Below, one piece after another: positions 447 through 38,539 of a stretch of 64,000 nucleotides of DNA. Origin of the DNA: an uncultured delta proteobacterium. GTDB taxonomy: Bacteria; Desulfobacterota; Desulfarculia; JACQYL01; CAWGVV01. A program made the position numbers and the translations under genes. The stretch is taken from the NCBI GenBank assembly GCA_963826125.1, contig CAWGVV010000002.1, positions 873,964-937,963 on the forward strand, given 5' to 3'. Within the stretch, counting starts at the first letter, position 1, and the number at the start of each line of letters is the position of its first letter. Under the pieces are notes generated by a model. The model was not told where the DNA came from. It saw nothing but the letters and a program-made list of their open reading frames with translations, and did no database searches.

Positions 447-2162
447 CTACTTCCCGAACATGTTGATCATGGGCAGTTTGATGCCTCGTTCTCCGGCCAC
501 TTCCATGGCCCGTTCGTATCCCGCGTCCGCGTGCCGGATGATGCCGGTGGCCGGATCGTTGCGGAGCACCGTGGTGAGGCGCAGTTCGGCCTGGTCCGTG
601 CCGTCGGCCACGGTCACCTGCCCGGCGTGCAGGGCGTAGCCGATCCCCACGCCGCCGCCGTCATGGAACGACACCCACGCCGCGCCGGAGGTCACGTTGA
701 CCATGCAGTTGAGGAGCGCCCAGTCGGCCACGGCGTCGGAACCGTCCTTCATGGCTTCGGTTTCCCGGTAGGGGGAAGCCACCGAACCGGTGTCCAGATG
801 GTCCCTGCCGATGACGATGGGAGCTTTCACCTTGCCCGTGCGCACCAGGTCGTTGAAGAGTTTTCCCGCCTTGTCCCGTTCGCCGTAGCCCAGCCAGCAG
901 ATGCGGGAAGGCAACCCCATGTGAGCCACTCGTTCTTCGGCCATCTTCAGCCAGTGTACCATACGCGTCTTGTGGGGGAATGTTTCCATGAGCGCATGAT
1001 CGGTGACTTCGATGTCGTGGGGATCGCCGGAAAGGGCGGCCCAGCGGAACGGCCCTTCGCCTTCGCAGAAGAGGTGGCGGATGTAGGCCGGGGTGAATCC
1101 CGGATAGCTCATAGCGTCGGCCACGCCCTTGCGCATGGCCTGGGCGCGGAGGTTGTTGCCGTAGTCAAAGGCCACCGCCCCCTTGGCTTTCATAGCCAGG
1201 ATGGCCCGGCAGTGGACGGCCATGGAATCGAGCGCCATGTCCATGTACCGTTTGGAGTCGGTTTTGCGCAGCGAAAGAGCTTCCTCGTAGGGAATTCCCG
1301 CCGGAACGTATCCGTTCAGTTCGTCGTGGGCGCTCGTCTGGTCGGTGACCACGTCGGGGATGAAGCCGGTTTCGACCATCTTGGGGAGCACGTCCGCGGC
1401 GTTGCCCAGCAGGCCGATGGAAAGCGGTTTCTTTTCCTGCGCCGCTTTCCGGGCCATACCGATTGCCTCGTCCATGCTTTCGGTCATGCAGTCCAGGTAG
1501 CGGGTGTCGAGGCGTCGCTGAATGCGGGCGCGATCCACTTCCACGCAGACGATGACGCCCCCGTTCATGGTCACGGACAACGGCTGGGCTCCGCCCATAC
1601 CGCCGAGTCCGCCGGTGAGGACGATCTTTCCGGAAAGGTCGGCGCCATAGTGCTGTTCGGCCAGCGCGGCGAACGTTTCGTACGTTCCCTGCAGGATACC
1701 CTGGGTCCCGATGTAGATCCACGAACCGGCGGTCATCTGGCCGTACATGATGAGCCCCTTCTTGTCCAGTTCGTGGAAGTACTCCCAGTTGGCCCAATGG
1801 GGGACGATGTTGGCGTTGGCGATGAGCACGCGCGGGGAATGGGGGTGCGTTTTCACGATGCCCACCGGCTTGCCCGACTGGACCAGCAGCGTTTCGTCGT
1901 TTTCCAGTTCCATCAAGGAGAGCACCAGGGCGTCGAAGCACGGCCAGTTGCGGGCGGCTTTGCCCATGCCGCCGTAGACGATGAGTTCGTCCGGCTTCTC
2001 GCCGTTGGCGGGGTCGAGGTTGTTGCACAGCATGCGCAGGGCCGCTTCCTGATACCACCCCTTGCAGTGCAGTTCAGTTCCGTGCGGCGCTTTGACGGGG
2101 CGCGGTTTGCCGCATCCGATCTGCAGGTCTTTTATCAATCGTTCTCGAGCTGTTGGGGCCAT
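447..2162 (-). CDS. hutU: urocanate hydratase (urocanase)
   Basis: ~570 aa; motifs typical of urocanase ([60 protein letters not shown]); start set at MAPTARER (ATG) rather than the upstream track start, which overlaps hutC. Confidence 0.9.
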
Positions 2163-2241
2163 GGAAAGACCTCCCGAATTATGACGAGCCCCGGGTGAGG
2201 GGCTGTTTGGTGAAGGAATCACTGCTTGACGACTTTTGGCA

Positions 2242-2261
2242 TATACATGTATATACAAGTG
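2242..2261. promoter_or_regulatory. HutC-operator-like palindrome (catATACATGTATATACAAGtg; core TGTATATACA) in the hutU/hutC divergent intergenic region
   Basis: palindromic GT-N-AC type site read in sequence; resembles the TTGTAT-TACAAG type operators reported for HutC-family GntR repressors; coordinates approximate (+/-1). Confidence 0.45.
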
Positions 2262-2404
2262 CGAAAAGGCAAGTCAATACTTTTCCTTTCGCGGCCATCG
2301 AATGCGGACGTGGGGAAGCTCGCGGAAACGGGCTCCTCCGAAAAAAGGCACAGCGTGTGGAATCAAAAAAGCAGGCGGGAAAGAGGAACGGGGAACATAT
2401 CAAC

Positions 2405-3166
2405 GTGAATACGAACGGAAGCGACCTCGACAACGGACAGCCCCTCCCCCTTTTTCAGCAGGTAAAGAACTACATCGCCGAGAACATCGAGTCGGGAAAC
2501 TGGGCTCCCCGGAGCCGGATTCCGTCCGAGAACGACATCGTGAACGAACTCGGCGTGTCCCGCATGACCGTACACCGCGCCATGCGCGAACTCACCGCGG
2601 AAGGTCTGCTGGTGCGGTTGCAGGGGGTGGGCACGTTCGTGGCGGAGCGCAAACCCCAGTCGGCGCTCCTGGAGATACGCTCCATCTCGGACGACATCGC
2701 CCGACGGGGAGGCGTCCACAGCAGCAAGGTGCTTCTGCTGCGTGAAGAAGCCGCCACGCGGGAACTTGCCGACGCACTGCACATCCCGCGCGGTTCCGCG
2801 GTGTTCCATTCCACCGTGGTTCATCGGGATAACGGCCGGCCGGTGCAACTCGCGGACCGTTACGTCAACCCCGCCGTCGCGCCGGATTACCTCAGACAGG
2901 ATTTCACCGTAATAACGCCCAGCGAGTACCTTTTCAGTCTCTGCCCGCTCACCGAGGCCGAACACATTGTCGAGGCCATTCTGCCCGACCCGAAGATGCA
3001 GGCGCTGCTCGAACTGGGACCGAAGGAAGCCTGCCTGGTGGTCCATCGCCGCACGTGGTCCAACGGCCTCGTGGTCACCAAGGCTCGTCTGGTGCATCCC
3101 GGCGCGGGGTTCCGGCTGGCCGGGCGGTTCAAACCGGCCTCGTCGGCCAGTCCCTTGGTGGGGTGA
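2405..3166 (+). CDS. hutC: histidine utilization repressor, GntR family with UTRA effector domain
   Basis: N-terminal wHTH (PLFQQVKNYIAENIESGNWAPRSRIPSENDIVNELGVSRMTVHRAMRELTAEGLL) plus UTRA-like C-terminus; GTG start chosen at VNTNGS because the longer track ORF overlaps hutU on the other strand. Confidence 0.75.
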   Translation: MNTNGSDLDNGQPLPLFQQVKNYIAENIESGNWAPRSRIPSENDIVNELGVSRMTVHRAMRELTAEGLLVRLQGVGTFVAERKPQSALLEIRSISDDIARRGGVHSSKVLLLREEAATRELADALHIPRGSAVFHSTVVHRDNGRPVQLADRYVNPAVAPDYLRQDFTVITPSEYLFSLCPLTEAEHIVEAILPDPKMQALLELGPKEACLVVHRRTWSNGLVVTKARLVHPGAGFRLAGRFKPASSASPLVG

Positions 3167-3799: not shown

Positions 3800-4117
3800 G
3801 AAACATGGACGGAAGAAAAGCCTTGGTTTGAGCCCATCACTTGTTTTCACGTGGTTGTCGGCCTGAAAATATCTTTGGGCTCGGTACCGACGGGGACCGT
3901 CACGACGAGGTATCGAAGCTTGAAAGTCGGGGGCAATTCAGCGGCAAGATAGTTTCCGCGACGGACCTCGGCAAACAGGCCGGAGGAATTTCCCGCCGAC
4001 GATGCGCACCATGTCTTTTGGTGCGGGTTCTCACGACGGCGGGCGACAAAAAAGCCGTTCATGCCGGTATCGAGGCATGAACGGCCCATGTTTCAATACG
4101 CTGAAAAAGGCTCCGGG

Positions 4118-5497
4118 TTACCCGTACGCAATGGACGGAAGCCACAGCACCAGCCTAGGCAGCAGCGCCACCAGCGTCAAGCCGATAATCTGCAGGATCA
4201 CGAAGGGGACCACGCCCTTGTAGGTGTCCCAGAGAGTGACTTCCGGCGGCGTGACCCCCATGAGGAAGAAGATGGCGAAGCCCACGGGCGGCGTGAGGAA
4301 GGACGTCTGCAGGGCCACGGCCACCAGGATGGTGAACCAGACCAGCTCCGGGTTGTCGACTCCCGGATAGACGGGCAGCTTCAGTCCCAGGGAACTGATC
4401 ACCGGCGCCAGCAGGGGCAGCACGATGAGGCATATCTCGATCCAGTCGAGGAAGAACCCCAGGATGAACACCACGCCGAGGATGACCGCGATGATGCCGT
4501 AGGGGCCGAAGGGCAACCCGGTGAGGGAACTCGCGATCACCTCGTCGCCACCCAGCAGCCGCAGCACCAGGGCGAAACAGGTGGCGCCCACGAAGATGCC
4601 GAAAATATAGCCGGTGGTCTTGAAGGTTTCGAGCGTGACGTCCCTGAGGACCTTCAAGTTGAATTTGCGGTTCTGCATGGCCAGGAGGGAAGCTCCCACG
4701 GCCCCGATGCCGCTCGCTTCGGTGGGGGTGGCGATACCGACGAAAATGGACCCCAGAACCATCAGGATGAGCCCGAAGGACGGGAGGATGGTCTTCAACA
4801 CATCCAGGAGTACGCCCGGAGTGATGGGGCGCCGGTCCTTGGCCAGAGGCGCGCCCGCCGGATGGACAAGACCGAAAATGATGATGTAGGCCACGTAGAG
4901 TGCGCCGAGCAACAATCCCGGCAACAGGGCGCCCATGAACAGATCGCCCACGGAAAGGCTCATCTGGTCGGCCATGACCACCAGCATGATGCTGGGGGGG
5001 ATGAGGATGCCGAGGGTGCCCGAGGCGGCGATGGTTCCCAGGGCCAGCGGCTTGGAATAGCCCTGATGTAGCATGGCCGGCAGCGACAGGAGGCCCAGCA
5101 GCACCACGGATGCGCCGATGATTCCGGTGGAGGCGGCCAGGATGACTCCGATGAGGGTCACCGTTACGGCCAATCCGCCCCGGATCCTTCCGAACAGGTC
5201 CTGCATGCTTTTCATCATCCGTTCGGCCACGCCGGAACGGTCGAGCATCAGTCCCATGAACACGAACATGGGGATGGCCACCAGCACCCAGTTGTCCATG
5301 AGCTTGAACACCCGGTTCACCGCCATCCCGATGATGTTGAAGTCGAGTCCCGTGGCGGTGCCCAGATACAGATCGGACAGATAGCCCACCAGGGTGAAGA
5401 TCATGGCTACGCCCCCGAGCACGAAGGCGATGGGAAATCCCGTGAACAGGAGGGCGATGAAGGTCAGGAACATCAGTATGACGAGGACGTCGCTCAA
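4118..5497 (-). CDS. TRAP transporter large permease (DctM family)
   Basis: 459-aa polytopic membrane protein with DctM-family conserved regions; directly downstream of DctQ- and DctP-type genes. Confidence 0.9.
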   Translation of the reverse strand: MSDVLVILMFLTFIALLFTGFPIAFVLGGVAMIFTLVGYLSDLYLGTATGLDFNIIGMAVNRVFKLMDNWVLVAIPMFVFMGLMLDRSGVAERMMKSMQDLFGRIRGGLAVTVTLIGVILAASTGIIGASVVLLGLLSLPAMLHQGYSKPLALGTIAASGTLGILIPPSIMLVVMADQMSLSVGDLFMGALLPGLLLGALYVAYIIIFGLVHPAGAPLAKDRRPITPGVLLDVLKTILPSFGLILMVLGSIFVGIATPTEASGIGAVGASLLAMQNRKFNLKVLRDVTLETFKTTGYIFGIFVGATCFALVLRLLGGDEVIASSLTGLPFGPYGIIAVILGVVFILGFFLDWIEICLIVLPLLAPVISSLGLKLPVYPGVDNPELVWFTILVAVALQTSFLTPPVGFAIFFLMGVTPPEVTLWDTYKGVVPFVILQIIGLTLVALLPRLVLWLPSIAYG

Positions 5498-5513
5498 GGG
5501 TAAAAACTCCTCT

Positions 5514-6038
5514 TCAGGCTTTCTTGAACAGCAGGGCCGCCGCCCGGATCATACGCGACACGGCCGCCACTCCCACCAGAGCCATGCTGACGGGAATCAC
5601 GGATTTTATGATCCAGCGGTAGGGGAGCCCCAGCGGGGAATCCGAACTTTCGTTCAGATGGTAGGAACTCTGTACGAAATCCAGACCGTGGATGAAAAGG
5701 ACGACGACAAGCGGCAGGAGCAGAAAAAGGATTCCCAGGAATTCGACCCATTCCTTCCCTCGGGGCGAAAACTTCCGGTGGGCCAGATCCAGCCGGATGT
5801 GGGAATCCGTCACGATTCCGTACGATATGCCGAACATCACGCACACGGCGTACAGGTGCCATTGGAGTTCTTCCAGGGACACCATGCCTTTTCCGAATAC
5901 ATAGCGCAAAATCACCTGGATCACGATGACGAGGACCGTGGCCACGTTCAGCCAGGCGATGGTCTGACCGATGCGGAGCACGAACCGGTCGAGGGACACA
6001 CAGACGGCGGGGGGTGCTTTGGGTTCCATAGTATTCAA
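5514..6038 (-). CDS. TRAP transporter small permease (DctQ family)
   Basis: 174 aa, four hydrophobic helices, position between DctP and DctM genes. Confidence 0.8.
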   Translation of the reverse strand: MNTMEPKAPPAVCVSLDRFVLRIGQTIAWLNVATVLVIVIQVILRYVFGKGMVSLEELQWHLYAVCVMFGISYGIVTDSHIRLDLAHRKFSPRGKEWVEFLGILFLLLPLVVVLFIHGLDFVQSSYHLNESSDSPLGLPYRWIIKSVIPVSMALVGVAAVSRMIRAAALLFKKA

Positions 6039-6132
6039 TCGTTTCGGATGCTGTTGGTTTTATCACACGGCGGGATAAAGTGGCGGGACCCGAATGGGTC
6101 CCGCCGTCTTTCGTATCTGGCCGTACGTTTCG

Positions 6133-7209
6133 TTACTTTTTCGCGGGGCCCAGGTCGCGCGGCAGGAAGCCGAGCCGGGACCAGTCTTTGTATTGGGCGC
6201 GGAAACCGTTCAGATCGTCCATTACCTTTTTGAAGAAGGGGTCTTTGGCGGACTGTTCCGTGGCTACCTCTTCCCACGCTCCCCGGAAGGCCTTCAGGAA
6301 CTCGGGGGACCAGTACATGTTGTGCACGCCGTGCTTTTCCGCGTTCTCCTCGATCACCGGGGCCTGAGTGGCCTCGCCGCGGGCGATGGACCAGGTGATG
6401 GTGGCCATGGTGGTCATTTCGATGATCTTCTGCTGGGCCGGCTTCATCTTGTTCCAGACGTCCTTGTTGATGAGCAGTTCGGTGAACGTGGACAACTGGT
6501 GCCAGCCGGGGAAGTAGTTGTATTTGGCGATCTTGTAGAAACCGAGGTTCTTGTCCATTGAGGGCAGGGAGAATTCCGTGGCGTCGATGGCGCCCTTCTC
6601 CAGGGCCGGGAAGATTTCCGCGGGCGGAAGCATGGTCACGGACACGCCCAGCTTCTGCATGGCTTCGCCGCCCAGGCCGTAGAAGCGCATCTTGAGGCCC
6701 TTGAGGTCGTCGAGGGACTTGATTTCCTTGGTGTACCAGCCGGACGATTCCGGGGGAATCAGCGCCAGGGGCAATACCTTCACGTTCATGCCCGCCTGGT
6801 CGTACATTTCCTGATAGAGCTTCAACCCGTTGCCGTTGAGCATCCAGGCCAGGTATTCGGGAGCTTCGGGACCGAAGGGAATGCTGGAAAAGATGGGCGC
6901 GGACGGAATTTTACCCGCCCAGAAGCCGGCCGCCGTGGAACCGGCGTCGATTCTGCCCTTGGAAACGGATTCCAGGATTTCGGCCGGAGAGACGAGCTTG
7001 CCGGGATCGAAAAGCTTGAACTCGACTTCGTCGCCGCTGGCGATTTTGATCTGCTCCGCCAGCCAGGGCGTGGATTCTCCCAGGATGGGCAGCGTGGGAG
7101 CGTAGAGCAACTGGCACTTGAGCACCGTCTTGGCTTGCACCGCACCCGACAACGCGACGAGCAAACAGAACACAACGGCCAAACCGAGAAGCATTCGCGT
7201 TTTCTTCAT
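6133..7209 (-). CDS. TRAP transporter substrate-binding protein (DctP family), secreted
   Basis: signal peptide MKKTRMLLGLAVVFCLLVALSGAVQA followed by DctP-type periplasmic binding fold; operon with Q and M. Confidence 0.9.
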   Translation of the reverse strand: MKKTRMLLGLAVVFCLLVALSGAVQAKTVLKCQLLYAPTLPILGESTPWLAEQIKIASGDEVEFKLFDPGKLVSPAEILESVSKGRIDAGSTAAGFWAGKIPSAPIFSSIPFGPEAPEYLAWMLNGNGLKLYQEMYDQAGMNVKVLPLALIPPESSGWYTKEIKSLDDLKGLKMRFYGLGGEAMQKLGVSVTMLPPAEIFPALEKGAIDATEFSLPSMDKNLGFYKIAKYNYFPGWHQLSTFTELLINKDVWNKMKPAQQKIIEMTTMATITWSIARGEATQAPVIEENAEKHGVHNMYWSPEFLKAFRGAWEEVATEQSAKDPFFKKVMDDLNGFRAQYKDWSRLGFLPRDLGPAKK

Positions 7210-7331: not shown

Positions 7332-8624
7332 TCAACCCTTCCGATGAGACGCGCCGTTCAGGAACGTTTCCAGCCGCGGCAGGGAACCGTCGGCCTGGAA
7401 GGGCAGGCTGAACCGTTCCTTCCGGACCTGAACATCCTTCCGGCCGGCGCACGATTCGAGGAGCGCGGTCGAAGCGGCCAGCCATTCGAGATGCTTGGTG
7501 TTCTCGATCCAGGCCACTTTCACCGTTTCCGGCTTCCATACGCCGATGGTGCGGAAGGCGGTCTCAAGGGCGGCCAGGTCGGTGGGAAGGGCGATGGGTA
7601 TGCGACCCTTTTCCGGCGTGCCGCCGGTGATGCTGTTGAGGGCTGTTTTTTCGAAGTCGATCTTCTGAAACACCTTCTTGGTGATGTAATCGGCCAGTCC
7701 GATGCCGATGGCGTTGCCGCCCGTATCTTCCGTCAGGTCCCGGATGATGATCCTAAGAATTTTCGGCGAGGTGCATTCTTTTTCGTAGATGTTCATGATG
7801 CGGCCCACCACCTTGGTGTCCGCTCCGGTGCCCGAAATCTCCTTGCCGATCTCGTCGATGATGAGCACGTCGAGTTCTTCGAAGGGCAGCTTCGGCTTGG
7901 TGGCGCGCGATTCTTCCAGCAGCGCCGGTTCCCGGTCGAAGATTTCCGCCGCGGGGATCACTTCCAGCCTGCGCAGGGTGTTGCGGTGGTCTTCTATCAG
8001 GGCAACTCCGGCCAGGATGTTGAGCCGGTCGAACAGGGCCGTTGCCACGGCGTGAATGGCCTTGTAATAGGAGATGTTGACCGCCAGGTGATGCATGGCT
8101 TCCGCGCCCTGCTGCCGACCCAGCCCCACCACCGCCATTTTCAGCAGTCCGGATTCCGTGTCGCCCATGTACTCCGTGTGTTCCTTGACCCGGTTGACCA
8201 GGATGATGTGGTCGGCTTCCGCCGCGGCTTTGTCCGCATACAGGGGAATGGGCGATATGGGGTGGTTGATTTCCACGTATCCCAGATCGTTGTAAATGGG
8301 CGCGCCCACGGTTTTCTCGGTGATGCCCAGGTGCTGGAGCACCTCCACCTGCCCGGCGGCCGTTCCCCCGCCGTGGCTGCCCATGCCCGGGTAGATCACG
8401 GGATTGCCCCCGGCGGCCTTCACTTCCTGCACGAGGCAGCGCAGCACTTCGGGTTTGGAATCGATCCCCCGGCTGCCGGCGGTGATGAGCACGCGGTCGC
8501 CCGGTTTGATCTTGGAAAAGACGTTGGTCCGCTTTAGTTCGTCGGCCAGCCATTTGCCGATCTGCGGCTCCGTCGATTCGGGATAGTTCTGCCGGACAAG
8601 TCCGAATTGCGGAAACTGCATCAT
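7332..8624 (-). CDS. LarA-like (DUF2088, lactate-racemase-type) protein, putative 2-hydroxyacid racemase/epimerase
   Basis: 430 aa; N-terminal block KPGDRVLITAGSRGID and GMGSHGGGTAAG mirror the LarA blocks (VAIVISDITRP / IATGTHRP); family assignment from memory, not searched. Confidence 0.55.
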   Translation of the reverse strand: MMQFPQFGLVRQNYPESTEPQIGKWLADELKRTNVFSKIKPGDRVLITAGSRGIDSKPEVLRCLVQEVKAAGGNPVIYPGMGSHGGGTAAGQVEVLQHLGITEKTVGAPIYNDLGYVEINHPISPIPLYADKAAAEADHIILVNRVKEHTEYMGDTESGLLKMAVVGLGRQQGAEAMHHLAVNISYYKAIHAVATALFDRLNILAGVALIEDHRNTLRRLEVIPAAEIFDREPALLEESRATKPKLPFEELDVLIIDEIGKEISGTGADTKVVGRIMNIYEKECTSPKILRIIIRDLTEDTGGNAIGIGLADYITKKVFQKIDFEKTALNSITGGTPEKGRIPIALPTDLAALETAFRTIGVWKPETVKVAWIENTKHLEWLAASTALLESCAGRKDVQVRKERFSLPFQADGSLPRLETFLNGASHRKG

Positions 8625-8715
8625 GTTCGTTCTCCATCTTGGACCGAAACGGTCGATTTATCTCTCGGAAGGGAAAAAGGCCGCTTCGAGCCCGCCGATT
8701 CCCTCCGGCGCTTCT

Positions 8716-10239
8716 TCACATCACCGGACCCAGGTGCCACGGTACGAATTCGTTGTCGCCGAATCCCAGCAGTTCGCTCTTGGTCTTTTTCCCGGAAGCG
8801 GTGTCCACGATGAGGCGGAACACCTCTTCCCCCAGCGCTTCCAGGCCGGTGTCGCCGTCCAGGACCGCTCCGCAGTTCACGTCCATGTCCCGGCTCATGC
8901 GCCGGTAGGTGGCGGTGTTGGAACAGAGCTTAATGGTCGGGACCGGTTTGAAACCGCAGACGCTCCCCCTGCCGGTGGTGAATACGGCTACGTTGGCGCC
9001 TCCTGCTATCATTCCGGTTACCGATACCACATCATACCCCGGAGTGTCCATGAAGATCAGCCCTTTGGCGGTGACGGGTTCCGCATACCGGTACACTTCC
9101 ACCAGGTCGGTGGTGCCCCCCTTGGCCGCCGCTCCCAGCGATTTTTCCAGGATGGTGGTGAGCCCTCCCGCTTTGTTGCCCGGCGAGGGGTTATTGTTGA
9201 TTTCCGCTCCGTGGAGGCGGGTATATTCCTCCCACCAGCGGATGCGCTCGATGAGCTTTTCGGCCGTTCGGGGAGACGCGGCCCGTCGGGTGAGGAGGTG
9301 TTCCGCGCCGTAGATTTCCGGCGTTTCGGCCAGGATCGACGTCCCGCCGCTCCGAACCACCCAATCGGCGGCCGCCCCCAGGACCGGGTTGGCGGTGATG
9401 CCCGAATAGCCGTCGGACCCCCCGCACTCGAGGGCCACCACCAGTTCGCCCGCCGGCACCGGGGTCCGGTGCGCTTCGTCGGCACGGGGGAGCATCTCCC
9501 GAACGATTTCCACGCCCAGCCGGACGGTTTCCTCGGTACCCCCTTCGTCCTGGATGTTGAGCATGCGCAACGTTTCGCTTTCCTTGAGGTTCATGTTGCA
9601 CGACAGACATTCCAGGTGGTTTCCCTCGCACCCAAGCCCCACCAGGATGACGGCGGCGAAATTGGGGTGGCGTATCCAGCCGGCCAGGGTGCGCTGCAGC
9701 AGGTCGAACCCTTCCCCCGCCATGGCGCACCCGGCTCCGTGTTTGATCGCCACCACGCCGTCGATGTTGGGATAGCGGGAAAGCTCCTCGGAGGTGAAAC
9801 GGTCGGCGATGAACTGCACCACGCTGGCGGAGCAGCTCACCGTGGCGATCACTCCGATGAAGTTGCGGGTACCCGTTCGGCCGTCGGGCCGGACGAACCC
9901 CTGAAAGGTCGGCACGTCCTTCAGCGGAAGATATTCCGTGGGGCGCGCGTCGCGGCCGATGCCGTAGTCGCGGGCGAAGTCGTGCAGGACGACGTTGTGC
10001 ACGTGCACGTGGTCGCCCGGTTCGATGGGCCGGGAGGCGAACCCGATGGTCTGGCCGTATTTCACCACGGGATCGCCCAGCGGGATCCGTTTGACTGCCA
10101 CTTTGTGCCCTGCCGGAACGGCCGACCGGCAGGTGATGTTTTCAGCGGTAACGGCCGTTCCGGACGGGATTTCGGCGATGGCCACGGCCACGTTGTCGGT
10201 GGGGTGGAGCCGAATGACGAGAGGATGGATTTCATTCAT
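8716..10239 (-). CDS. UxaA/GarD-family dehydratase (altronate / galactarate dehydratase-like) with N-terminal SAF domain
   Basis: N-terminal SAF-like region (LHPTDNVAVAIAEIPSGTAV), then UxaA-family core; 508 aa from the ATG at MNEIHP. Confidence 0.8.
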   Translation of the reverse strand: MNEIHPLVIRLHPTDNVAVAIAEIPSGTAVTAENITCRSAVPAGHKVAVKRIPLGDPVVKYGQTIGFASRPIEPGDHVHVHNVVLHDFARDYGIGRDARPTEYLPLKDVPTFQGFVRPDGRTGTRNFIGVIATVSCSASVVQFIADRFTSEELSRYPNIDGVVAIKHGAGCAMAGEGFDLLQRTLAGWIRHPNFAAVILVGLGCEGNHLECLSCNMNLKESETLRMLNIQDEGGTEETVRLGVEIVREMLPRADEAHRTPVPAGELVVALECGGSDGYSGITANPVLGAAADWVVRSGGTSILAETPEIYGAEHLLTRRAASPRTAEKLIERIRWWEEYTRLHGAEINNNPSPGNKAGGLTTILEKSLGAAAKGGTTDLVEVYRYAEPVTAKGLIFMDTPGYDVVSVTGMIAGGANVAVFTTGRGSVCGFKPVPTIKLCSNTATYRRMSRDMDVNCGAVLDGDTGLEALGEEVFRLIVDTASGKKTKSELLGFGDNEFVPWHLGPVM

Positions 10240-10303
10240 GGAGTACACCCGTGTTTGAAAGTTTCCGCAACACGGTCTTTCCGCTCCATGGGGCGGTGTT
10301 TCC

Positions 10304-11788
10304 TCAGACCCAACGGGCGGTGACCGTCTTTTCGTCCATGAACAACCGCATGGACGCCAGACGCGATTTGGCGGTTCCCATGAAGGAATCCCGCCGCGAA
10401 CCGAGGGGGAAGAACGCGTACGGCTGGGCCACTCCCACGTTTACCCCGACGTTGCCGACATTCACTTCCCGCGTGAACCTGCGGGCGTTCTTCATGTTGC
10501 CGGTCATGATGCAGGCCGAGTGGCCCAAATTCGTTTTGGTATTGATCCACTCGATAGCCTGTTCCAGGCTGTCCCCCCGAATGAGCGCCGCCGTCGCGCC
10601 GAAGGCCTCTTCCTTGGCCATCGGCATGTCCACGGTGACGTTCTCGAGAATCGTGGGAGCCATGAAATGTCCGTGCGGGTAATCATCCGGCATGGCGGAC
10701 CTGCCGTCAAGGACCATTGTGGCGCCGTCCCGGAGCGACTTCTCGATCCACAGCAGGACTTTTTCCTTCCCGTCTTCCGTGGTGTACGGTCCCATTTCCG
10801 TTTTTTCGTCGAGGCCGTAGCCGAGGCGCATGGATTTCGCCGCGGCCGTCAGCTTGGCTTTCATCTCGTCGTAAATGTTTCCTATCACGACGACGTTGTC
10901 AACGCCCAGGCATCTCTGGCCGGTCATGCCGAAGCAGGCCCGCTGCAGCCAGGGGATGCAGGCGTCGATGTCCGCATCCGGCATGATGACCACGTGGTTC
11001 TTGCCGTTGCCGTTGATCGAGGAGGTTTTTCCCAGCTTCCCGCAGGTTTCGAAAAGCTCGTGCCCGGCGCGGTTGGAACCGATGAATCCCACCCCCTTGA
11101 TTTCCGGTTGTTCCAGAATGGTCTTGTTGATTTTCCGGCCACCATGCACCAGGTTCAGCACTCCGGGAGGGAACCCGACTTCCTGGGCGACGCGCATGAT
11201 CGCGTCGGCCGCGATGGGGTCCTGCCGGCTCGGACTCACGACCACGGTGCACCCGGCGGCCAGGGCATAGGGGACGAAGGAAGACCACGCGTGCATGGGG
11301 ACGTTGCCGGGGGTGACAATCAGGAAGGCTCCCAGCGGTTCCCACATCAGGTATTCGTCGATGCCGTTGGCCAGCTGATCCTGATACTCGTTTTGTTTCA
11401 CCAGCCCGTAGGCGGCGGAGCAGGCGGATTCGATGTTTTCGATCACCCGGCTGACCGAACCTCTGGATTCGCCGATGGTCCTTCCGTGGTCCTGGGTGAG
11501 AATACGGCAGAGGTGCTCATGGTTGTCTTCAAACGCGTGGTGCAGTTTGAACAGGAGTCTGGCCCGTTCCCGCAGGGGAAAATCCTTCCATGACTGAAAC
11601 GCCCGGTGGGCGCTGTGAACTGCTGCCAGCGCCTCATCCGTCGTGGCCTGGGGAAACTCCGCGATCGGTTGGCCGGTGGCGGGATTCGTGCTGACCTCGA
11701 CGTCGGTGGATGCGGAATCCACCCACGCTCCATCGACGAGAAATTGCAGCTTTCCATAATGTGCTCGTACTTCCGACAAAACGGCCAT
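10304..11788 (-). CDS. aldehyde dehydrogenase, methylmalonate-semialdehyde dehydrogenase (CoA-acylating)-like
   Basis: ALDH fold with catalytic Cys region FGMTGQRCLGVDNVVV and the MMSDH-type C-terminal signature GNVGVNVGVAQPYAFFPLGSRRDSFMG. Confidence 0.8.
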   Translation of the reverse strand: MAVLSEVRAHYGKLQFLVDGAWVDSASTDVEVSTNPATGQPIAEFPQATTDEALAAVHSAHRAFQSWKDFPLRERARLLFKLHHAFEDNHEHLCRILTQDHGRTIGESRGSVSRVIENIESACSAAYGLVKQNEYQDQLANGIDEYLMWEPLGAFLIVTPGNVPMHAWSSFVPYALAAGCTVVVSPSRQDPIAADAIMRVAQEVGFPPGVLNLVHGGRKINKTILEQPEIKGVGFIGSNRAGHELFETCGKLGKTSSINGNGKNHVVIMPDADIDACIPWLQRACFGMTGQRCLGVDNVVVIGNIYDEMKAKLTAAAKSMRLGYGLDEKTEMGPYTTEDGKEKVLLWIEKSLRDGATMVLDGRSAMPDDYPHGHFMAPTILENVTVDMPMAKEEAFGATAALIRGDSLEQAIEWINTKTNLGHSACIMTGNMKNARRFTREVNVGNVGVNVGVAQPYAFFPLGSRRDSFMGTAKSRLASMRLFMDEKTVTARWV

Positions 11789-12133
11789 GGGGTAAATCTC
11801 CTCTCTTTCGGGGGTTGTTGATCCTGCGTAACCGCTCGTCGATTCTTCGACGGGGAAACGACGTTGTTTTCAAAGTGCGGTTTTCCCGCTTCCCTTTCCG
11901 GTGGAACGGACGGGTGTCACCTTCCGCCGGCTGTGCCGTCCATTGGGCGAAACACGATGCTCGACCGAAAGAAGTACCGGTCCTTCCCGAAAAAGACTCT
12001 TCATCCTGCACCTCTACCGGTCCGGAGACGAGCCTTTGGGGGATAGGGGGGAGGTGTTCAATTCGACGCCGCGGAAGCGGCGGCGACGGGAGAAATTCTG
12101 TTGTGGCTTTGCCATAGGGAGCCTGCGGAACAT

Positions 12134-13477
12134 TTACATTTTTGACGGTAGATAGGAAACGAGGCCGGGAAACAGGACGAGGAACATCAGCGCGGCAAAC
12201 AGAATAAAAATAAACGGGATCGTGCCGCTGATGATGGTTTTGATCGGCACGTCCGTTACCGCTTTTATGACGAACAGATTCAACCCCACCGGGGGCGTGA
12301 TCATGCCGATTTCCACCGACAGGGTGGAAACGACGCCGATCCACAGGGGATCGAAGCCAAGGGCGGTAAACGTGGGAAAGAGAAACGGGATTGTCATGAC
12401 GATCATGCTGGTGGGATCGAGGATGCATCCCAGGACGAGCCACAACACCCAGGTCAAAATGAAAAACACCCAGCGGTTGACGCCGAACCCGACGATCAGA
12501 TTGGCCAGTCCGTGTGCGATTCCCAGGAACGTCACGACGTAACTCAACGAGAGTCCGGCGAAAATGAGGAACACGATCATGACGCTGATTCTGGCGCTGC
12601 CCGCGCAGATGTCGAAAAACGTGGAAAGGCGCAGCCTGCCCAATAGGATGATTATCAGGAAGGCGCCCGTAGCCCCCACTCCGGATGCCTCCGTCGCCGT
12701 GGCCATGCCGGTGTACAAGGTACCCAGCACAAGAACGATCAGCACCATCGGCGGAACGATGGTTTTCAGATCGGCCCAAAATTCTCCGGAAGCACTCTTG
12801 CCCGAATCGGCCGTTTCACGAACGGCTCGTTCGGCCGTCCGCTTCGGCGCCTTTTCCACGCCGACGAGGCTAGGATTGAAAGTCGCCCGGAGAACGATGA
12901 AGACACACAACAGGAAGCTTATCAGCAACCCGGGAAGTATTCCGGCGATGAAAAGCTTGGCGATGGACGTTTCCGTGATGATCCCGTACACGACGAACGC
13001 CATGCTGGGCGGTATCATGATGCCGAGCGTGCCGCCGGCGGCGATCACGCCGGTGGAAAAGCCGGGATCGTAGCCCCGGTCCACCATCTCGTTCACCGAT
13101 ATCCGGCCGATCGCCGCCGCGGTAGCCGGACTCGACCCGCATAACGCCGCGAATATGGTGCAGGCCATGGTCGCACTTACGGCGAGTCCGCCCTTCAGCC
13201 GGCTCATCCATTTGCTCAATACCGTGAAGATATCGGTGGCGATACCGCCCTTGGCCAGAATTTCGGCCATCAGAATGAAGAGCGGAGCAATCAGCATCGT
13301 CTGGCTGGTGGCCATGCTGAAGGCAATGGTGCCGATGGGATACAACTGATCGGGTGAAAGAAAGATCACCGTACACAACACCGCCACGAATCCCAAGCCG
13401 AAAGCAACGGGAGTTCCCATTGAAAGAACGATTAACAGGATGAGCACTATGACAAAAACCAGCATTCCGATACCCAT
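12134..13477 (-). CDS. TRAP transporter large permease (DctM family), second system
   Basis: 447-aa polytopic DctM-type protein following DctQ/DctP genes. Confidence 0.9.
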   Translation of the reverse strand: MGIGMLVFVIVLILLIVLSMGTPVAFGLGFVAVLCTVIFLSPDQLYPIGTIAFSMATSQTMLIAPLFILMAEILAKGGIATDIFTVLSKWMSRLKGGLAVSATMACTIFAALCGSSPATAAAIGRISVNEMVDRGYDPGFSTGVIAAGGTLGIMIPPSMAFVVYGIITETSIAKLFIAGILPGLLISFLLCVFIVLRATFNPSLVGVEKAPKRTAERAVRETADSGKSASGEFWADLKTIVPPMVLIVLVLGTLYTGMATATEASGVGATGAFLIIILLGRLRLSTFFDICAGSARISVMIVFLIFAGLSLSYVVTFLGIAHGLANLIVGFGVNRWVFFILTWVLWLVLGCILDPTSMIVMTIPFLFPTFTALGFDPLWIGVVSTLSVEIGMITPPVGLNLFVIKAVTDVPIKTIISGTIPFIFILFAALMFLVLFPGLVSYLPSKM

Positions 13478-13498
13478 AATGGAATCTCCCCAAGCCGA

Positions 13499-14002
13499 TC
13501 ACAGATATTCTTCACCTTTTTGCAGCAGATCACGTATGATGAACACTACGATTGCGGTCATCAGAACGCATCCCACAAGCATACCGGCGTAGAGATAAAC
13601 GACGGGTATCTGAATAACCGCCAGCGTCAGCTTGTTGAGGTGCAGGGCGTCCTTGATAAAGGATAAGGTCGTGCCCAGAAGAACGAGAATGTATACCAAG
13701 GAGAACGCGTAGCCCGCGACGGCCAGAAAGCAGCCGTACGACTTTCCGCATTTGCTTGAGATTACGTTTCTGATGAAATCGACCGACACGTGCGTTTTTT
13801 CCTGGATCGCCGAAGCAGTGCCCAGGAAGAAGGCCCAGATGAGCAGGTACGTGGATACGTCCAGGGTCCAGGAAGTCGGGTGGGAGAAAACGTTCCGGGC
13901 GATCGTTTCGAATGCACAGAGAAAGCTGATGAGGAAGATGATGATTCCTCCGATGACCGCCGCCACGTGGTTGACCTTGCGAACGAATGAGAAAGACGTC
14001 AT
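13499..14002 (-). CDS. TRAP transporter small permease (DctQ family)
   Basis: 167 aa, four TM helices, between DctP and DctM. Confidence 0.85.
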   Translation of the reverse strand: MTSFSFVRKVNHVAAVIGGIIIFLISFLCAFETIARNVFSHPTSWTLDVSTYLLIWAFFLGTASAIQEKTHVSVDFIRNVISSKCGKSYGCFLAVAGYAFSLVYILVLLGTTLSFIKDALHLNKLTLAVIQIPVVYLYAGMLVGCVLMTAIVVFIIRDLLQKGEEYL

Positions 14003-14073
14003 GTTGCGCTTCCTTCCTCATAAAGGCGAAGCGGCCGGTGGAAGAGAACGTTCGCACCGGCCACTCCCCGGAA

Positions 14074-15096
14074 TCACTTCACCGCTCTGAGCGCCTCCAT
14101 CAATGCAACGCCTTCAGGGCCGGCAATGGGCGTGATCTTTTCCCACAACGGTTCCCTCACCTTCCTGAACTGTTCGTTCTGTTCCTTTGTCAGGTGATAC
14201 AGTTTGCAACCCGAGTCCTGTACCGCCTTTTCAAACTGCTGCTCCATCTCCGACGCGTTCTGTATGTTGAAGTTCATCCACTTCTTGACTGACCGTTGCA
14301 CCGCTTCCTGCTGGCTCGCATTCAGGCTTTTCCATGCCTTGTCGCTCATCATCATGCCCCGGAACATCTCCGGGATTTCGGTGACCGTGACGAAGGGAGC
14401 CGATTCATACAGCTTCAGGGCTCCGGCCAGCTGCCAGCCGATGTACCCGACGTCCAGGGTGCCCCTGCCGAGGGCGGTGGGAAGATCGCGCAAGGGGACC
14501 GTAATGGGGCTTCCTCCCCACATCATGATCGCTTCCCCGCCCCATTTGCCAGGGGTACGCACGGTGGCGCCCTTGAAATCCTCGGGGCAGGTAACGAGTT
14601 TTCCGAACCGTTTTATCCCCAGAAAGGTCATGGTGCCCGCATCGTCCAGGCCGAGGTATTTGATGCCGTATTTTGCGAAAATTTTTTCAACGACGGGACG
14701 GGTGACTTTATCCACTTCCAGGTAGTGATTTCCGGGATAAGCGCCGGGTACTTCAAAGGGGGTTAATTCCTTCATGGTGGGACTGAGATAGGCTACGAAA
14801 AAGTGCCCGATATCGACGGTACCCCGTGTGACGGCCTCAAGGATGTCGTGGTCCGAAATGAGCGATCCGGCGGGAAAGGTTTCCACCTTCACCTGCCCTT
14901 GGGTTTCCTCACTCACCGTTTTGGCGAAAAACTCGTATCCTCGTCCCTGTATCCCGGTTGCCGGCGGTGCGTAGCTGAATTTCAGAACCAGAGGTTTTTG
15001 CGCCATGCCTGTCGATGCGCATACCAGCAGAATGAATGAAAAGCACATCAGTACCGTTATGAATCCTCGCGCCCGCTTTTTGCCCTCGATGCCCAT
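14074..15096 (-). CDS. TRAP transporter substrate-binding protein (DctP family), secreted
   Basis: N-terminal hydrophobic signal (FITVLMCFSFILLVCASTGMA) then DctP-type binding protein; first gene of the P-Q-M triplet. Confidence 0.85.
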   Translation of the reverse strand: MGIEGKKRARGFITVLMCFSFILLVCASTGMAQKPLVLKFSYAPPATGIQGRGYEFFAKTVSEETQGQVKVETFPAGSLISDHDILEAVTRGTVDIGHFFVAYLSPTMKELTPFEVPGAYPGNHYLEVDKVTRPVVEKIFAKYGIKYLGLDDAGTMTFLGIKRFGKLVTCPEDFKGATVRTPGKWGGEAIMMWGGSPITVPLRDLPTALGRGTLDVGYIGWQLAGALKLYESAPFVTVTEIPEMFRGMMMSDKAWKSLNASQQEAVQRSVKKWMNFNIQNASEMEQQFEKAVQDSGCKLYHLTKEQNEQFRKVREPLWEKITPIAGPEGVALMEALRAVK

Positions 15097-15309
15097 GTTT
15101 CCCCTCCTCGAAAGTTTCGTGCTGCGGAAAAATCAGTTGAGTCGAATCAGGAGCTTGGAACGAAACTTCTCGACCGATACCTCCTTTCTTTTTCACGGAT
15201 TCACCCCCCTTTTCGCGTTCGCCGGGAGACGATCGACGGGGGATGAATCCTAAGGCCGGAACAGCCGTTGATTTGCATGCAAACCGTTTTAAGCGCTTTT
15301 TTTCGTGCA

Positions 15310-15879
15310 CTAGGGTCTTTTCAGTACTTCTTCCAGCGTGAGTCCGCCGACGCGGGGCAAAGGCCTGCCCGAATCGGAAAAAGCGACGGCCACCATAATC
15401 TCGTCGCCCCTCGGAGCGTCGTGGATTCTGACTTCCATGGTGTCGAAATGGGACCGGACCCGCGCTTCATCCTTATAGTGGAGCGGCACGTCGATCGGTG
15501 TCCCTGCGGGGCCTATTTTCTTGGCCTGGGGGATGAGGGCCTTTCCCGCGCCCAAAACGTCGCGCATCGTGAGCCCCAGTTTGGGATGCAGTATGGCTCC
15601 CGTATGTTCATATTCCCCGTCGAGGCCGACGATGGCCCCTTTCCCGAAGTTGTGTATGTCCTTGGGCTCGACTTGCAGCGTATCCAGGGCGCGCTGCGTC
15701 AGTATGGTGCCCAGCTCCGCGCCCATTTCAATGAGTTCGCCGAGGTCCTCCACGTACCGCCCCGCAAAGGGGTTTTTCAGCACGGCCACGACGGCGATTT
15801 TTCGGTGACCCGGAGTGATTTCCCTGTCCATCTCCATGCAGACTTCTTCGATCATCGTGGCGAATTTCCGAATCTTCAT
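15310..15879 (-). CDS. amino-acid-synthesis family protein (PF06684-like), function unknown
   Basis: ~190 aa from ATG MKIRKFATMIEEV, with AAGGAGAA RBS 8 nt upstream; matches my recollection of the AA_synth family (…NPFAGRYVEDL…GLDGEYEH…MEVRIHDAPRGDEI…); the longer track ORF adds a Lys/Arg-rich leader with no RBS. Confidence 0.65.
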   Translation of the reverse strand: MKIRKFATMIEEVCMEMDREITPGHRKIAVVAVLKNPFAGRYVEDLGELIEMGAELGTILTQRALDTLQVEPKDIHNFGKGAIVGLDGEYEHTGAILHPKLGLTMRDVLGAGKALIPQAKKIGPAGTPIDVPLHYKDEARVRSHFDTMEVRIHDAPRGDEIMVAVAFSDSGRPLPRVGGLTLEEVLKRP

Positions 15880-15940
15880 GATTGATTTATTCTCCTTTTT
15901 TCCGGCTGATGGGAGTTGAAAACGAATATCCGTTCCGGAG

Positions 15941-17503
15941 TTATTCCCGATGCTTTTCCTTTTCCGCCGCGACTTCCTCAATCACCTCGGACAGCGGCCG
16001 GATACTATCAACGTGTCCTCCGATTGCCGCGTAGTCTTTCAAGGTCATGGTGTATTCCATGGGGACCACGATGGCGGGCGTCGGGACCCAATGATAGAAG
16101 CCCGTTTGCACGTGCTCCACGTCCACCACGAACGTGATTCCTCCGCCCGGCATGATAAAAGTCGGCGCACCGCCGATCGTTAGCCGCGCCTTGCGCTCCT
16201 TGATGGCTTCGGTCAGTTTCAGGGGCTTACCGGTGATGCCGGAACGGGACGCGCCTCCCCCGCCGCCCACGAACATGGCCGACACCCGCGATTTCTCGCA
16301 TACCGACTGCAGTTCGTTCACCGCCGCGAGTACCCGGGGAGTGGGATCCATGGGGACGAATTCGCCGTTTTCGAACCGGAGCAGGGCATGGTATCCTCCG
16401 GTGGGCTCGGTCACGAGCAGCGTCGTTCCGGGCCGGATCGTGCTCCTGCCCATGTCGATGACGTCCACGGGATTCATGGTGTCGGTTCCCCCGATGCCGT
16501 TCCCCTTGACGCCGAAATACCGCCCCGGGGTGGATTCCCGATACTTCAAAACAATGCCCGAGGGCGGAACCTTGAAATAACGGCCCGTGGCGTGGGCGGA
16601 AAACACGCCGGTGAGCTGGTGGTCCAGAATGATGACTTCGTCGGCGATGCCGTTGAACAGCGGCGAGAAAACGCCGACGGTGGCGCTGCCGCATCCCGCG
16701 GCGATTTTTTCACGTACGGCTCCGTTGATGACCGGCGGCTTCGCCACTTCAAGCACCAGCCGCGCCCCGCCCTCGACGTTCAACGAGACTTTTTTCCGGT
16801 TCGCGATGTCCGTGATGGCCTTGACGGAGAACATTCCGTTCTCACCGCCCGTAAGATGCAGTCCTCCAAGGGAAAGCACCGGGGCATTGTATTCTTCCGT
16901 GGTCACCATCCCAATGCGCCGCTTGAGGTAGGTAACCGCGGCGCCTTCTTCCCCGATGGGCAGATCGGTGTCGATCTTCACCTTTAGTCCGTTGACCGTC
17001 AGCGGGCATTCCGTCACGCACGTAACGCAATCCACGCCGTCCACTTTGTCCTGGACGATGTACGGTGCGGGCCGGAAATCGGGCGAAGTGGTCCCGGCCC
17101 CCATTCCCGTGATGAGGGGCTTTTGGATCGCGGGGTGGTATTCGGGGGGAAGAAGATCGTGGATGGGACTCTGCAGGACCAACGGAATCTTCCTCGTGAC
17201 GGTTCCCCCGTCGTTCGTATAGCGCAGACAGGCTCCGGTTTTTCCCGGTTGGATCGCGCAGCCCACGGGACAGGATGTGCAGATTACGGCGTTCGGATCG
17301 GGGAAAATCTCCCTGACCAGAGCATGTTCCGGGCAGACTTTGACGCACGCGCCGCAGTTGACGCAGTTTTCGTTCGTTCGAGCTTTCCTGTTCACCACCT
17401 CGATTGCATGAACCTGACAGATCAGCTCGCAGATTTTGCAACCGGCACATTTTTCCGAATCGATTTTGATCACAGCCAGCTCCTCATTAGCGGAACGGAT
17501 CAC
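15941..17503 (-). CDS. iron-sulfur protein: N-terminal 2x[4Fe-4S] ferredoxin domain plus large C-terminal domain; architecture resembles 6-hydroxynicotinate-reductase-type enzymes as I recall them
   Basis: CxxCxxCxxxCP twice (CAGCKICELICQ, CVNCGACVKVCP) plus further Cys clusters (CTSCPVGC, CVTCVTECP); 520 aa; specific enzyme assignment is a guess. Confidence 0.6.
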   Translation of the reverse strand: MIRSANEELAVIKIDSEKCAGCKICELICQVHAIEVVNRKARTNENCVNCGACVKVCPEHALVREIFPDPNAVICTSCPVGCAIQPGKTGACLRYTNDGGTVTRKIPLVLQSPIHDLLPPEYHPAIQKPLITGMGAGTTSPDFRPAPYIVQDKVDGVDCVTCVTECPLTVNGLKVKIDTDLPIGEEGAAVTYLKRRIGMVTTEEYNAPVLSLGGLHLTGGENGMFSVKAITDIANRKKVSLNVEGGARLVLEVAKPPVINGAVREKIAAGCGSATVGVFSPLFNGIADEVIILDHQLTGVFSAHATGRYFKVPPSGIVLKYRESTPGRYFGVKGNGIGGTDTMNPVDVIDMGRSTIRPGTTLLVTEPTGGYHALLRFENGEFVPMDPTPRVLAAVNELQSVCEKSRVSAMFVGGGGGASRSGITGKPLKLTEAIKERKARLTIGGAPTFIMPGGGITFVVDVEHVQTGFYHWVPTPAIVVPMEYTMTLKDYAAIGGHVDSIRPLSEVIEEVAAEKEKHRE

Positions 17504-17527
17504 TCGCCGGGTGGTTCGATCATCCGA

Positions 17528-18193: not shown

Positions 18194-18277
18194 TGGACAC
18201 TCTCCCTTATGGTTTCACCGATGGCATTTCGGTTAAAGGCAGTGGAGGAAAGACGGGTCCCGCCTCCCCGCGAGTCG

Positions 18278-18982: not shown

Positions 18983-19348
18983 CTGAAGACGGAGGCCTCC
19001 TGTTGTGGTTATTTCGTCGAATGTCGACAATCGACAAATAGCCGCCCGAACCTGTTCGTGTCAAGAAAAATCGGGAAACATTCCCCATAAATCGGAGCAA
19101 GTGAAAATTTGCGCAAGCATGCGGAACGAAATCCGCCCATTCCCGGACGTTCGTCCCTCATTCAGGGTGAGGAATCATGACGTCCTGCAAACGCCCGCGG
19201 AGATCGGGGATGCGAAGGGGGACGCGCCGTTTCTTGCCACGGGTCTCTTTTGCCGGAATGACGAAACGGAGGCGCGAGGAGGATGCTCCGACCCCCTCCG
19301 GGGGGCACGGTGGATTACGCGCGACAGCCGGGCGTCCTGACGGCAACC

Positions 19349-21664: not shown

Positions 21665-21953
21665 CGGGCTATTTCGTTGTTAAGCTATTGAAAATAATAT
21701 TATATTTTCTCTACTCATGCCGATTCGCCATTGCCGGCTGTTGCATTTTTCAACACCGGCCGTGCCGTGGCGGGCGGGGAAAAGGAAGAAAAGCCCCATT
21801 CCTCCCGACAAAATGGTCGTTGCAGATGGCAACAGAGGCCATGTTGCAAAAAGCAACGCATTGACAGAAGGAGAAAAGACGTGGAAAATTCAAATGCTTC
21901 GCGGTCCGGACAAGAAAAAGGAAAACGCCGCGGGCGGAGAGGGGGACAGGCGC

Positions 21954-38536: not shown

Positions 38537-38539
38537 GTC

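Follow-up and report, generated by a model that had tools for sequence, protein, structure and literature searches.

Few enzymes that depend on the nickel-pincer nucleotide (NPN) have been assigned a function. Group 22 of the LarA homologs (LarAHs) is large and functionally orphan; it was classed as "unknown function" by Desguin 2020, and the genes associated with it encode short-chain dehydrogenases/reductases (SDR), dihydroxy-acid dehydratase, LarE, components of tripartite ATP-independent periplasmic (TRAP) transporters, sugar kinases, IclR and glucuronate isomerase (PMC7583248). No functional characterisation of the group was found in the literature searched. The D-gluconate 2-epimerases GntE1 and GntE2 (groups 19 and 20; TM0442, PDB 4NAR) are NPN-dependent enzymes that invert a sugar acid at C2 in a uronate or aldonate pathway. 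The window analysed here is a 64-kb stretch of DNA from an uncultured delta proteobacterium (contig CAWGVV010000002.1). On its minus strand, a Group 22 LarAH gene (7332-8624) lies between the gene for a UxaA/GarD-superfamily dehydratase (8716-10248) and those for a TRAP transporter (DctPQM1, 4118-7209). On balance, it is favoured here that these genes form one catabolic module, from which the aldehyde dehydrogenase (ALDH) gene immediately upstream (10304-11788) is excluded.

The LarAH (430 aa) is a putative NPN-dependent 2-hydroxy-acid (aldonate) 2-epimerase or racemase. By sequence it belongs firmly to the LarA superfamily, within group 22. Its score with the NCBIfam model NF052515, "nickel pincer cofactor-dependent isomerase, group 22", is 452.2 bits, above the cutoff of 400, and it is 42% identical (E 9e-93) to Cagg_0419, which is listed with Rxyl_2987, Bcoa_1745 and BMD_3424 among the Group 22 LarAHs in the supplementary dataset of Desguin 2020 (PMC7583248). 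An earlier reading of the letters (the sequence-only reading) had described this product as LarA-like with a DUF2088 domain. The LarA kinship holds; the Pfam Lar_N/DUF2088 (PF09861) threshold is missed, with E=0.066 and 12.9 bits where 23.3 are required. The significant Pfam match is to DUF362 (5e-8, 33.6 bits), which shares one Pfam clan with Lar_N/DUF2088 (PMC11770544); precomputed PF09861 matches are present in some close relatives. A direct sequence search against PDB chains returned no LarA, and it takes profiles, fold comparison and curated models to reveal the kinship; the protein has the two-domain LarA fold. The group-22 clade, with more than 4500 matches in a protein search, extends over many bacterial phyla and the haloarchaea. 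The window protein is a new member of this catalogued, functionally uncharacterised group.

The catalytic His, Lys and nickel-pincer residues of LarA, which the sequence-only reading had proposed as a check, are present. In hhalign pairings with canonical LarA homologs, H84, H149, K162 and H178 correspond to H108, H174, K184 and H200 (L. plantarum numbering). The spacing of 16 residues between the NPN-tethering lysine (K162) and the nickel-ligand histidine (H178) is the same as between LarA K184 and H200. R52 (LarA R75) lies in a "GSRG" motif, where the hhalign register is off by one. None of the five residues varies among 46 close homologs, nor among 92 members of the family, bacterial and haloarchaeal, at 34-60% identity. 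They reproduce the R-H-H-K-H signature given for Group 22 in the Desguin dataset, and the longer signature of R, H, H, T, acidic, K, H is also shared with the group (PMC7583248; NF052515). The substrate contacts of LarA (Y294, Q295, K298, F175 and F176) are replaced in group 22, the first three by D, T and I (Desguin table, PMC7583248); the predicted substrate is therefore not lactate-like in the LarA sense.

GntE1 and GntE2 resemble the window LarAH in the NPN-dependent sugar-acid C2 epimerisation predicted here. However, identity is only ~15%, and GntE has E, V, A and H at LarA positions 175/176/358/359 where group 22 has T, D/E, V and L. GntE also supplies a kinase and not a dehydratase. 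The AKR-type NPN enzymes (NphT, 2026) were considered for comparison and set aside as irrelevant, having a different fold.

The dehydratase (507-510 aa; the called start, an ATG at 10239, gives 507 aa) contains SAF, GD_AH_second and GD_AH_C domains (Pfam E 9e-14, 1e-44 and 1e-103). This is the three-domain architecture of D-arabinonate dehydratase C785_RS13685 and D-idonate dehydratase (PMC6336799), E. coli UxaA and GarD. E. coli GarD (6U7L) is the nearest solved structure, and identity to a protein annotated as GarD is ~35%; the score with the GarD equivalog model TIGR03248, 380.6 bits, is below its cutoff of 730.85. Cys139, Cys174, Cys207 and Cys275 are invariant in 16 aligned homologs. By residue number, and not from an alignment, they nearly match Cys134/173/208/276 of D-arabinonate dehydratase, which have been proposed as iron ligands and are absent from sulfolactate sulfo-lyase (SuyB) (Watanabe 2019, PMC6336799).

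Orthologs of the dehydratase (50-66% identity) are found in Desulfobacterota metagenome-assembled genomes (MAGs), Azospirillum, Paracoccus, Ralstonia and Roseobacters. Those in Desulfobacterota MAGs (54-66%) are common and their context is variable. The Azospirillum ortholog (61%) adjoins uxaC; the Ralstonia ortholog occurs with an aldolase, tartrate dehydrogenase and a succinate-semialdehyde dehydrogenase (SSADH); and other proteobacterial orthologs occur with SDR, fumarylacetoacetate hydrolase (FAH), ILVD, enolase and TRAP genes. Orthologs of 54-62% identity with SDR, FAH-family, ILVD and TRAP genes recall the non-phosphorylative pentonate route. In contrast to these systems, the dehydratase is not accompanied by an SDR, FAH or aldolase in the part of the window that was scanned.

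From the observed gene content, family membership, conserved residues and synteny, we infer the following chemistry, order of steps and substrate class. The TRAP system would bring in a small 2,3-dihydroxy carboxylic acid. The LarA-type enzyme, with its nickel-pincer nucleotide tethered at Lys162 and His178 as nickel ligand, would invert C2 by transient hydride transfer, His84 and His149 serving as acid and base. The C2 epimer thus made would be the form accepted by the stereospecific, iron-dependent UxaA-type dehydratase, which would take water from C2-C3 to give a 2-keto-3-deoxy acid. Because dehydration erases the C2 and C3 stereocentres, the epimerase would merely widen the range of usable stereoisomers.

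Coupling of an epimerase to a dehydratase had been proposed in the sequence-only reading, and comparison across genomes makes it plausible. The survey covered, within a radius of 10 kb, the 80 closest LarAH genome loci listed, which do not include the source genome and in which the closest LarAH is 61% identical; it also covered 83 loci of UxaA orthologs. On Pseudosulfitobacter and Sulfitobacter plasmids, beside a GntR gene, the order is UxaA-like (51%), group-22 LarAH (35%) and LarC. The UxaA-LarAH gap is 68 bp in the five Pseudosulfitobacter records read, and the adjacency was also seen in one Sulfitobacter record; both queries match 47 Pseudosulfitobacter and 13 Sulfitobacter records. A Loktanella locus reads IlvD/Edd-Ldh-DHDPS-UxaA-LarAH (DHDPS, dihydrodipicolinate synthase), and a Sporomusa termitida locus reads enolase-TctCBA-LarAH-split UxaA, the LarAH being of group 22 in both. 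On the metagenome contig L134, the order is LarAH-LarC-LarE-LarB-UxaA. At three MAG loci (L054, L059 and L060), the two genes are 2-7 kb apart.

Sugar-acid enzymes also surround group-22 LarAHs in many other lineages, which agrees with the sugar-acid setting that had been suggested for the window LarAH. Some adjoin ILVD/EDD dehydratases and 2-hydroxy-acid dehydrogenases. A Natrinema member has an enolase-superfamily enzyme, an SDR, an FAH and a mannonate dehydratase nearby, and a Haloferax member has a pectate lyase and a GH28 glycoside hydrolase. On a Haladaptatus halobius plasmid (L183:5938-9921), a four-carbon acid-sugar kinase, a cupin and PdxA are encoded directly after the LarAH; this arrangement suggests a role as D-erythronate/D-threonate 2-epimerase in a tetronate pathway. 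Judged by gene content, the common denominator of these contexts is 2,3-dihydroxy (sugar) acids, and with acids of this kind a C2 epimerase would supply a dehydratase or kinase that is stereospecific. Since group-22 LarAHs stand beside UxaA or like sugar-acid enzymes in distant lineages, the coupling is supported. The neighbours typical of Group 22 (TRAP, sugar-acid dehydratase, LarE, SDR and uxaC) are common to both datasets; the Desguin table, however, has ILVD-type (COG0129) and not UxaA-type (COG2721) dehydratases for this group, and Desguin Table S1 links COG2721 to LarAH group 5 (PMC7583248).

A separate observation concerns another LarA group. At L092 (8816-11545), the gene just upstream of a dehydratase ortholog (60%) encodes a LarA-superfamily protein that is 29% identical to a canonical LarA homolog. 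More than one group of LarAHs is thus paired with UxaA-type dehydratases.

Within group 22, the window LarAH falls into a distinct subclade with the signature E151/K271/N278/E281, found chiefly in Thermodesulfobacteriota MAGs and represented by 17 loci (43-60% identity). TRAP and GntR/FCD genes are frequent at these loci, canonical LarA is present at five, LarC is present at some, and one has an adjacent ILVD dehydratase. The closest relatives (L004-L017, e.g. L014:10004-17668) usually have TRAP, GntR/FCD and a corrinoid methyltransferase set alongside. This set consists of a URO-D-type methyltransferase, a B12-binding protein and a pterin-binding methyltransferase (Pfam-confirmed). The substrate at such loci may be a methylated hydroxy acid.

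The transporter provides a further clue to the substrate. All three components are encoded together: the solute-binding protein DctP1 (6133-7209; Pfam DctP), the small permease DctQ1 (5514-6029, 171 aa; PF04290 on the identical Logan contig L001) and the large permease DctM1 (4118-5473 by the L001 gene call, 4118-5497 in the scan frame; 451 aa; Pfam DctM 9e-73, TIGR00786 above cutoff). The nearest solved structures to DctP1 are 4PET, 5CM6, TakP of R. sphaeroides (2HZK/2HZL) and 7UG8, a "ketoacid-binding protein"; TakP and the lactate-binding TTHA0766 of T. thermophilus (2ZZV) are both among its best solved-structure matches. 4PET and 5CM6 were reportedly solved with pyruvate bound, and TakP binds 2-oxo acids. 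The closest annotated homologs of DctP1 (49-56%) are on four Rhodobacterales plasmids. The Q and M subunits are fused in the Roseobacter operons and separate in the window. The DctP1 matches suggest that the ligand is a small 2-hydroxy or 2-oxo monocarboxylate. A TakP-like binding protein beside a Desulfobacterota UxaA ortholog (L184) was examined as a possible DctP1 ortholog and rejected; its DctM is 46% identical but its DctP only 28%.

No kinase, aldolase or second dehydratase is encoded in the operon (11788-4050); the ORFs in the rest of the window were scanned in part. Given a lactate/2-oxo-acid-type binding protein and no such enzyme to follow, a short aldonate would be expected; glycerate or a similar short aldonate, converted to pyruvate, would be the simplest substrate to fit DctP1, the LarAH and the dehydratase. 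The specific guess is D/L-glycerate. Hexarates appear less likely than a short aldonate. The hexonate or hexarate substrate put forward in the sequence-only reading is accordingly doubtful, as DctP1 is of the TakP/lactate type and a 2-keto-3-deoxy-hexonate kinase or aldolase is missing from the operon. A more general form of the guess can be offered with low confidence: group-22 LarAHs would be NPN-dependent C2-epimerases of short aldonates such as glycerate and tetronates, and the window trio of transporter, epimerase and dehydratase would be self-contained, taking both enantiomers of glycerate, or of a like 2,3-dihydroxy acid, to pyruvate.

Several observations weigh against the epimerase-dehydratase module. 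A UxaA relative lies within 10 kb of the LarAH at just three of the 80 loci listed (L054, L059 and L060), and a group-22 LarAH is found at one of the 83 UxaA-ortholog loci (L134). None of the other loci of the window subclade carries a UxaA gene; corrinoid methyltransferase genes are present instead at 10 of the 17 loci, several of them with a TRAP system. In Roseobacters and Sporomusa, the LarAHs linked to UxaA have no more than 34-36% identity to the window protein and carry other residues at positions 151/271/278/281. As the pairing in the window is unique in its subclade, confidence in carrying the function over from these lineages is lowered. The closest DctP1 homologs are in lactate operons, and lactate, having no 3-hydroxyl group, is not a substrate for a dehydratase. 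We know of no UxaA-family glycerate dehydratase. In addition, no larB, larC or larE is present in the 64-kb window, and the LarAH may be without its cofactor. Finally, the ALDH stop is followed after only ~55-64 bp by the start of the dehydratase gene, and no convincing terminator was seen in between, so that co-transcription or read-through from the ALDH gene into the dehydratase gene is possible.

The lactate-type relatives of DctP1 raise the possibility that the LarAH and the TRAP system serve as a racemase system for lactate or another simple 2-hydroxy monocarboxylate, making both enantiomers usable to an anaerobe whose dehydrogenases are stereospecific, with the dehydratase a mere neighbour. 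DctP1 homologs head D-lactate dehydrogenase operons in all three contexts read, two of which also contain an alpha-hydroxy-acid oxidase. TRAP genes stand beside many LarAHs of the window subclade, and the Haloarcula marismortui LarAH adjoins LUD-domain (lactate utilisation) proteins. This explanation is nevertheless unlikely: group 22 lacks the LarA lactate-binding residues Y294, Q295 and K298 (PMC7583248), the canonical LarA present at five subclade loci would make such a racemase redundant, and the adjacency of LarAH and dehydratase recurs across phyla.

The sequence-only reading had joined all four functions in a single route: import of a hexonate or hexarate, epimerisation by the LarAH, dehydration by the UxaA-type enzyme, and later oxidation of a semialdehyde by a CoA-acylating ALDH. 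The gene order it gave, ALDH, dehydratase, LarA-like, DctP, DctQ and DctM on the minus strand, is correct; the genes are contiguous, with short gaps. UxaA orthologs of Ralstonia, Paracoccus and Pseudosulfitobacter do occur with ALDHs and aldolase/DHDPS-family enzymes in sugar-acid clusters, and the position of the Azospirillum ortholog beside uxaC is also consistent with such a route. The ALDHs of sugar-acid clusters, however, are of other types (SSADH-like or ketoglutarate semialdehyde dehydrogenase (KGSADH)-like, 26-30% identity). No aldolase or KdgD-type enzyme that could make the aldehyde from the 2-keto-3-deoxy acid is encoded in the operon, the rest of the window having been scanned in part; the binding protein, as described above, is of the lactate/2-oxo-acid type. 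These points, together with the conserved position of the ALDH orthologs, make the full route quite unlikely.

The ALDH (494 aa; Pfam Aldedh 1.6e-115) resembles methylmalonate-semialdehyde dehydrogenases (MMSDHs) and is probably CoA-acylating. Its best NCBIfam match is the MMSDH model TIGR01722, with 366.3 bits, below the cutoff of 448.5, and the nearest solved structures are MMSDHs. In MMSDHs, the catalytic Cys is preceded by Arg and the "ELGG" motif has no general-base Glu. By motif reading, not alignment, the same is true of the window enzyme, which has "GQRC" with the Arg-Cys pair and "INGNGKNH" with no Glu at the usual position. Compared with the CoA-acylating MMSDH of B. subtilis (IolA, 1T90), the general-base Glu is thus likewise missing and the Arg-Cys is kept; yet the score stays under the model cutoff (366 vs 448.5 bits) and identity to annotated MMSDHs is at most 38%.

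Upstream of the ALDH, the window contains a second TRAP system (12134-15096), which was absent from the sequence-only reading. Both belong to a conserved eight-gene block on the minus strand (10304-19030). In order of transcription, with families assigned by Pfam, the genes before the ALDH encode a GntR/FCD regulator (18278-19030), a cyclase-family hydrolase (17528-18193), a 520-aa 2x[4Fe-4S] protein (15941-17503), AA_synth (PF06684; 15310-15981), DctP2 (14074-15096), DctQ2 (13499-14002) and DctM2 (12134-13477). In two other contigs (L173 and L174), all eight genes occur in the same order at 69-86% identity, or 69-83% for the seven before the ALDH, and are followed by unrelated genes; neither contig has a UxaA or LarAH gene. 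In L175 and L176, the ALDH (76-77%) follows GntR/FCD-DctPQM, in company with an isochorismatase-family protein, a three-subunit molybdenum hydroxylase, an amidohydrolase, a homolog (49%) of the FeS protein, and ApbE. ALDH orthologs as a whole share 72-86% identity and are fixed at the end of this block. No ALDH relative was found at the 80 LarAH loci listed (tblastn E<=1e-10, at least 50% of the query), and no ortholog at the 83 UxaA loci, three of which have unrelated ALDHs (27-30% identity).

Because its orthologs end the upstream block in contigs without UxaA or LarAH, the ALDH is assigned, on synteny, to the GntR-cyclase-FeS-AA_synth-TRAP2 module as its terminal enzyme, outside the epimerase-dehydratase route; the idea that it finishes the sugar-acid pathway is not sustained. 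Its orthologs are found in clusters like those for N-heterocycle degradation, whereas the valine, inositol and sugar-acid contexts of MMSDHs were not seen. The block and its partners in L175 and L176 resemble the anaerobic nicotinate pathway of Eubacterium barkeri. By analogy, the ALDH could convert 2-formylglutarate to glutaryl-CoA in an undescribed variant of that pathway. The 520-aa 2x[4Fe-4S] protein was also considered as a second DUF362/LarA-like protein and rejected; it does not resemble the LarAH, and its Pfam matches are confined to the ferredoxin domain.

It is decidedly unlikely that the LarAH of the proposed epimerase-dehydratase module is not an epimerase at all, being either apo and inactive in a genome without NPN biosynthesis or the catalyst of another hydride transfer, such as intramolecular redox isomerisation of a hydroxy acid. 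The sequence-only reading had noted that LarB, LarC and LarE are missing, and this is confirmed for the window: NCBIfam scans of ~40 open reading frames (ORFs) found none of them, and queries from three organisms gave nothing at E<=1e-5 in six-frame tblastn of the whole 64 kb. Other hydride-mediated reactions are considered possible for some LarAH groups (Desguin 2020, PMC7583248), the substrate-binding residues are unlike those of all characterised groups, and the usual partners in the subclade are corrinoid methyltransferases. On the other hand, both catalytic histidines, which are required for two-sided proton transfer, are invariant, and the gene is intact in a strongly conserved family (mean column identity 67%).

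Cofactor genes are also found beside group-22 LarAHs elsewhere. In the two closest relatives that have large contigs (L004 and L005), LarC lies within 10 kb of the LarAH, and larC adjoins the LarAH in Pseudosulfitobacter. The order is LarAH-hypothetical-larB-larC-larE-like at the Loktanella locus and uxaC-LarAH-SDR-larE-larB-larC at a Paenibacillus locus. As larB, larC and larE stand beside these genes, NPN dependence is likely for the group-22 family; for the source genome it is unproven.

The weakest alternative, in which (S)-3-sulfolactate is converted to its (R) form by the LarAH and then cleaved by the UxaA-family enzyme, acting as a fused SuyAB-type sulfo-lyase, to pyruvate and sulfite for sulfite respiration, is most improbable: SuyAB does belong to the UxaA/GarD superfamily (PMC6336799), a one-enzyme racemase would make sense where the known "racemisation" takes two dehydrogenases, and the anaerobic host has Hdr-like genes and a TauE/SafE-family gene (19446-20525), but the enzyme is fused and full-length with four invariant cysteines that match dehydratases by position and are absent from the sulfo-lyase (PMC6336799), its 50-61% orthologs are in hexuronate- or pentonate-type clusters, and no link between LarA and sulfolactate was found in the literature searched.

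Transcription signals are in part consistent with the limits of the proposed module. A strong terminator-like hairpin (4087-4052, minus strand), with a 14-bp stem followed by a T-run, lies 3' of DctM1 and appears to close the transcription unit. An 80-aa ORF (3847-4089, minus strand) called on the Logan contig overlaps this hairpin; it has no family match and is probably not a real gene. The DctP1-DctQ1 intergenic region contains a GC-rich hairpin with a perfect 12-bp stem (6080-6107), which may stabilise the part of the transcript that encodes the binding protein. In a sigma-70 promoter scan, matches were no more numerous than in shuffled sequence.

Just past the module (447-3166) are hutU (urocanate hydratase, 912 bits) and a divergent GntR/UTRA (HutC-like) regulator; these are unrelated to it. 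A Lon-type protease (AAA and Lon_C; 21717-23963, plus strand) has an unusual architecture, with a response-regulator receiver domain at residues 200-308. An MmdA/GcdA-like carboxyltransferase (24197-25588, minus strand) and a pair of HdrA-like and HdrC/TfrB-like Fe-S proteins (37001-39733, minus strand) indicate an anaerobic lifestyle; the carboxyltransferase could have a role in glutaconyl-CoA decarboxylation. NifS (42733-43908), Prs (53989-54954) and MnmA (62541-63608) are singleton clusters at 90% identity among ~15 billion proteins; the source organism is without a close sequenced relative.

Reassignment of the ALDH mends a tempting mis-assignment, and the cluster to which it belongs may be a variant anaerobic N-heterocycle pathway. 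The corrinoid-methyltransferase wiring of the same LarAH subclade is a hint that hydroxy acids with O- or S-methyl groups are broken down anaerobically. For group 22 as a whole, the comparative data narrow the search for a substrate to 2,3-dihydroxy (sugar) acids, and the binding protein, epimerase and dehydratase of the window form a compact set that could reveal it. If the proposed epimerase role is true, it would give a first function to a widespread orphan group of nickel enzymes in bacteria and haloarchaea.

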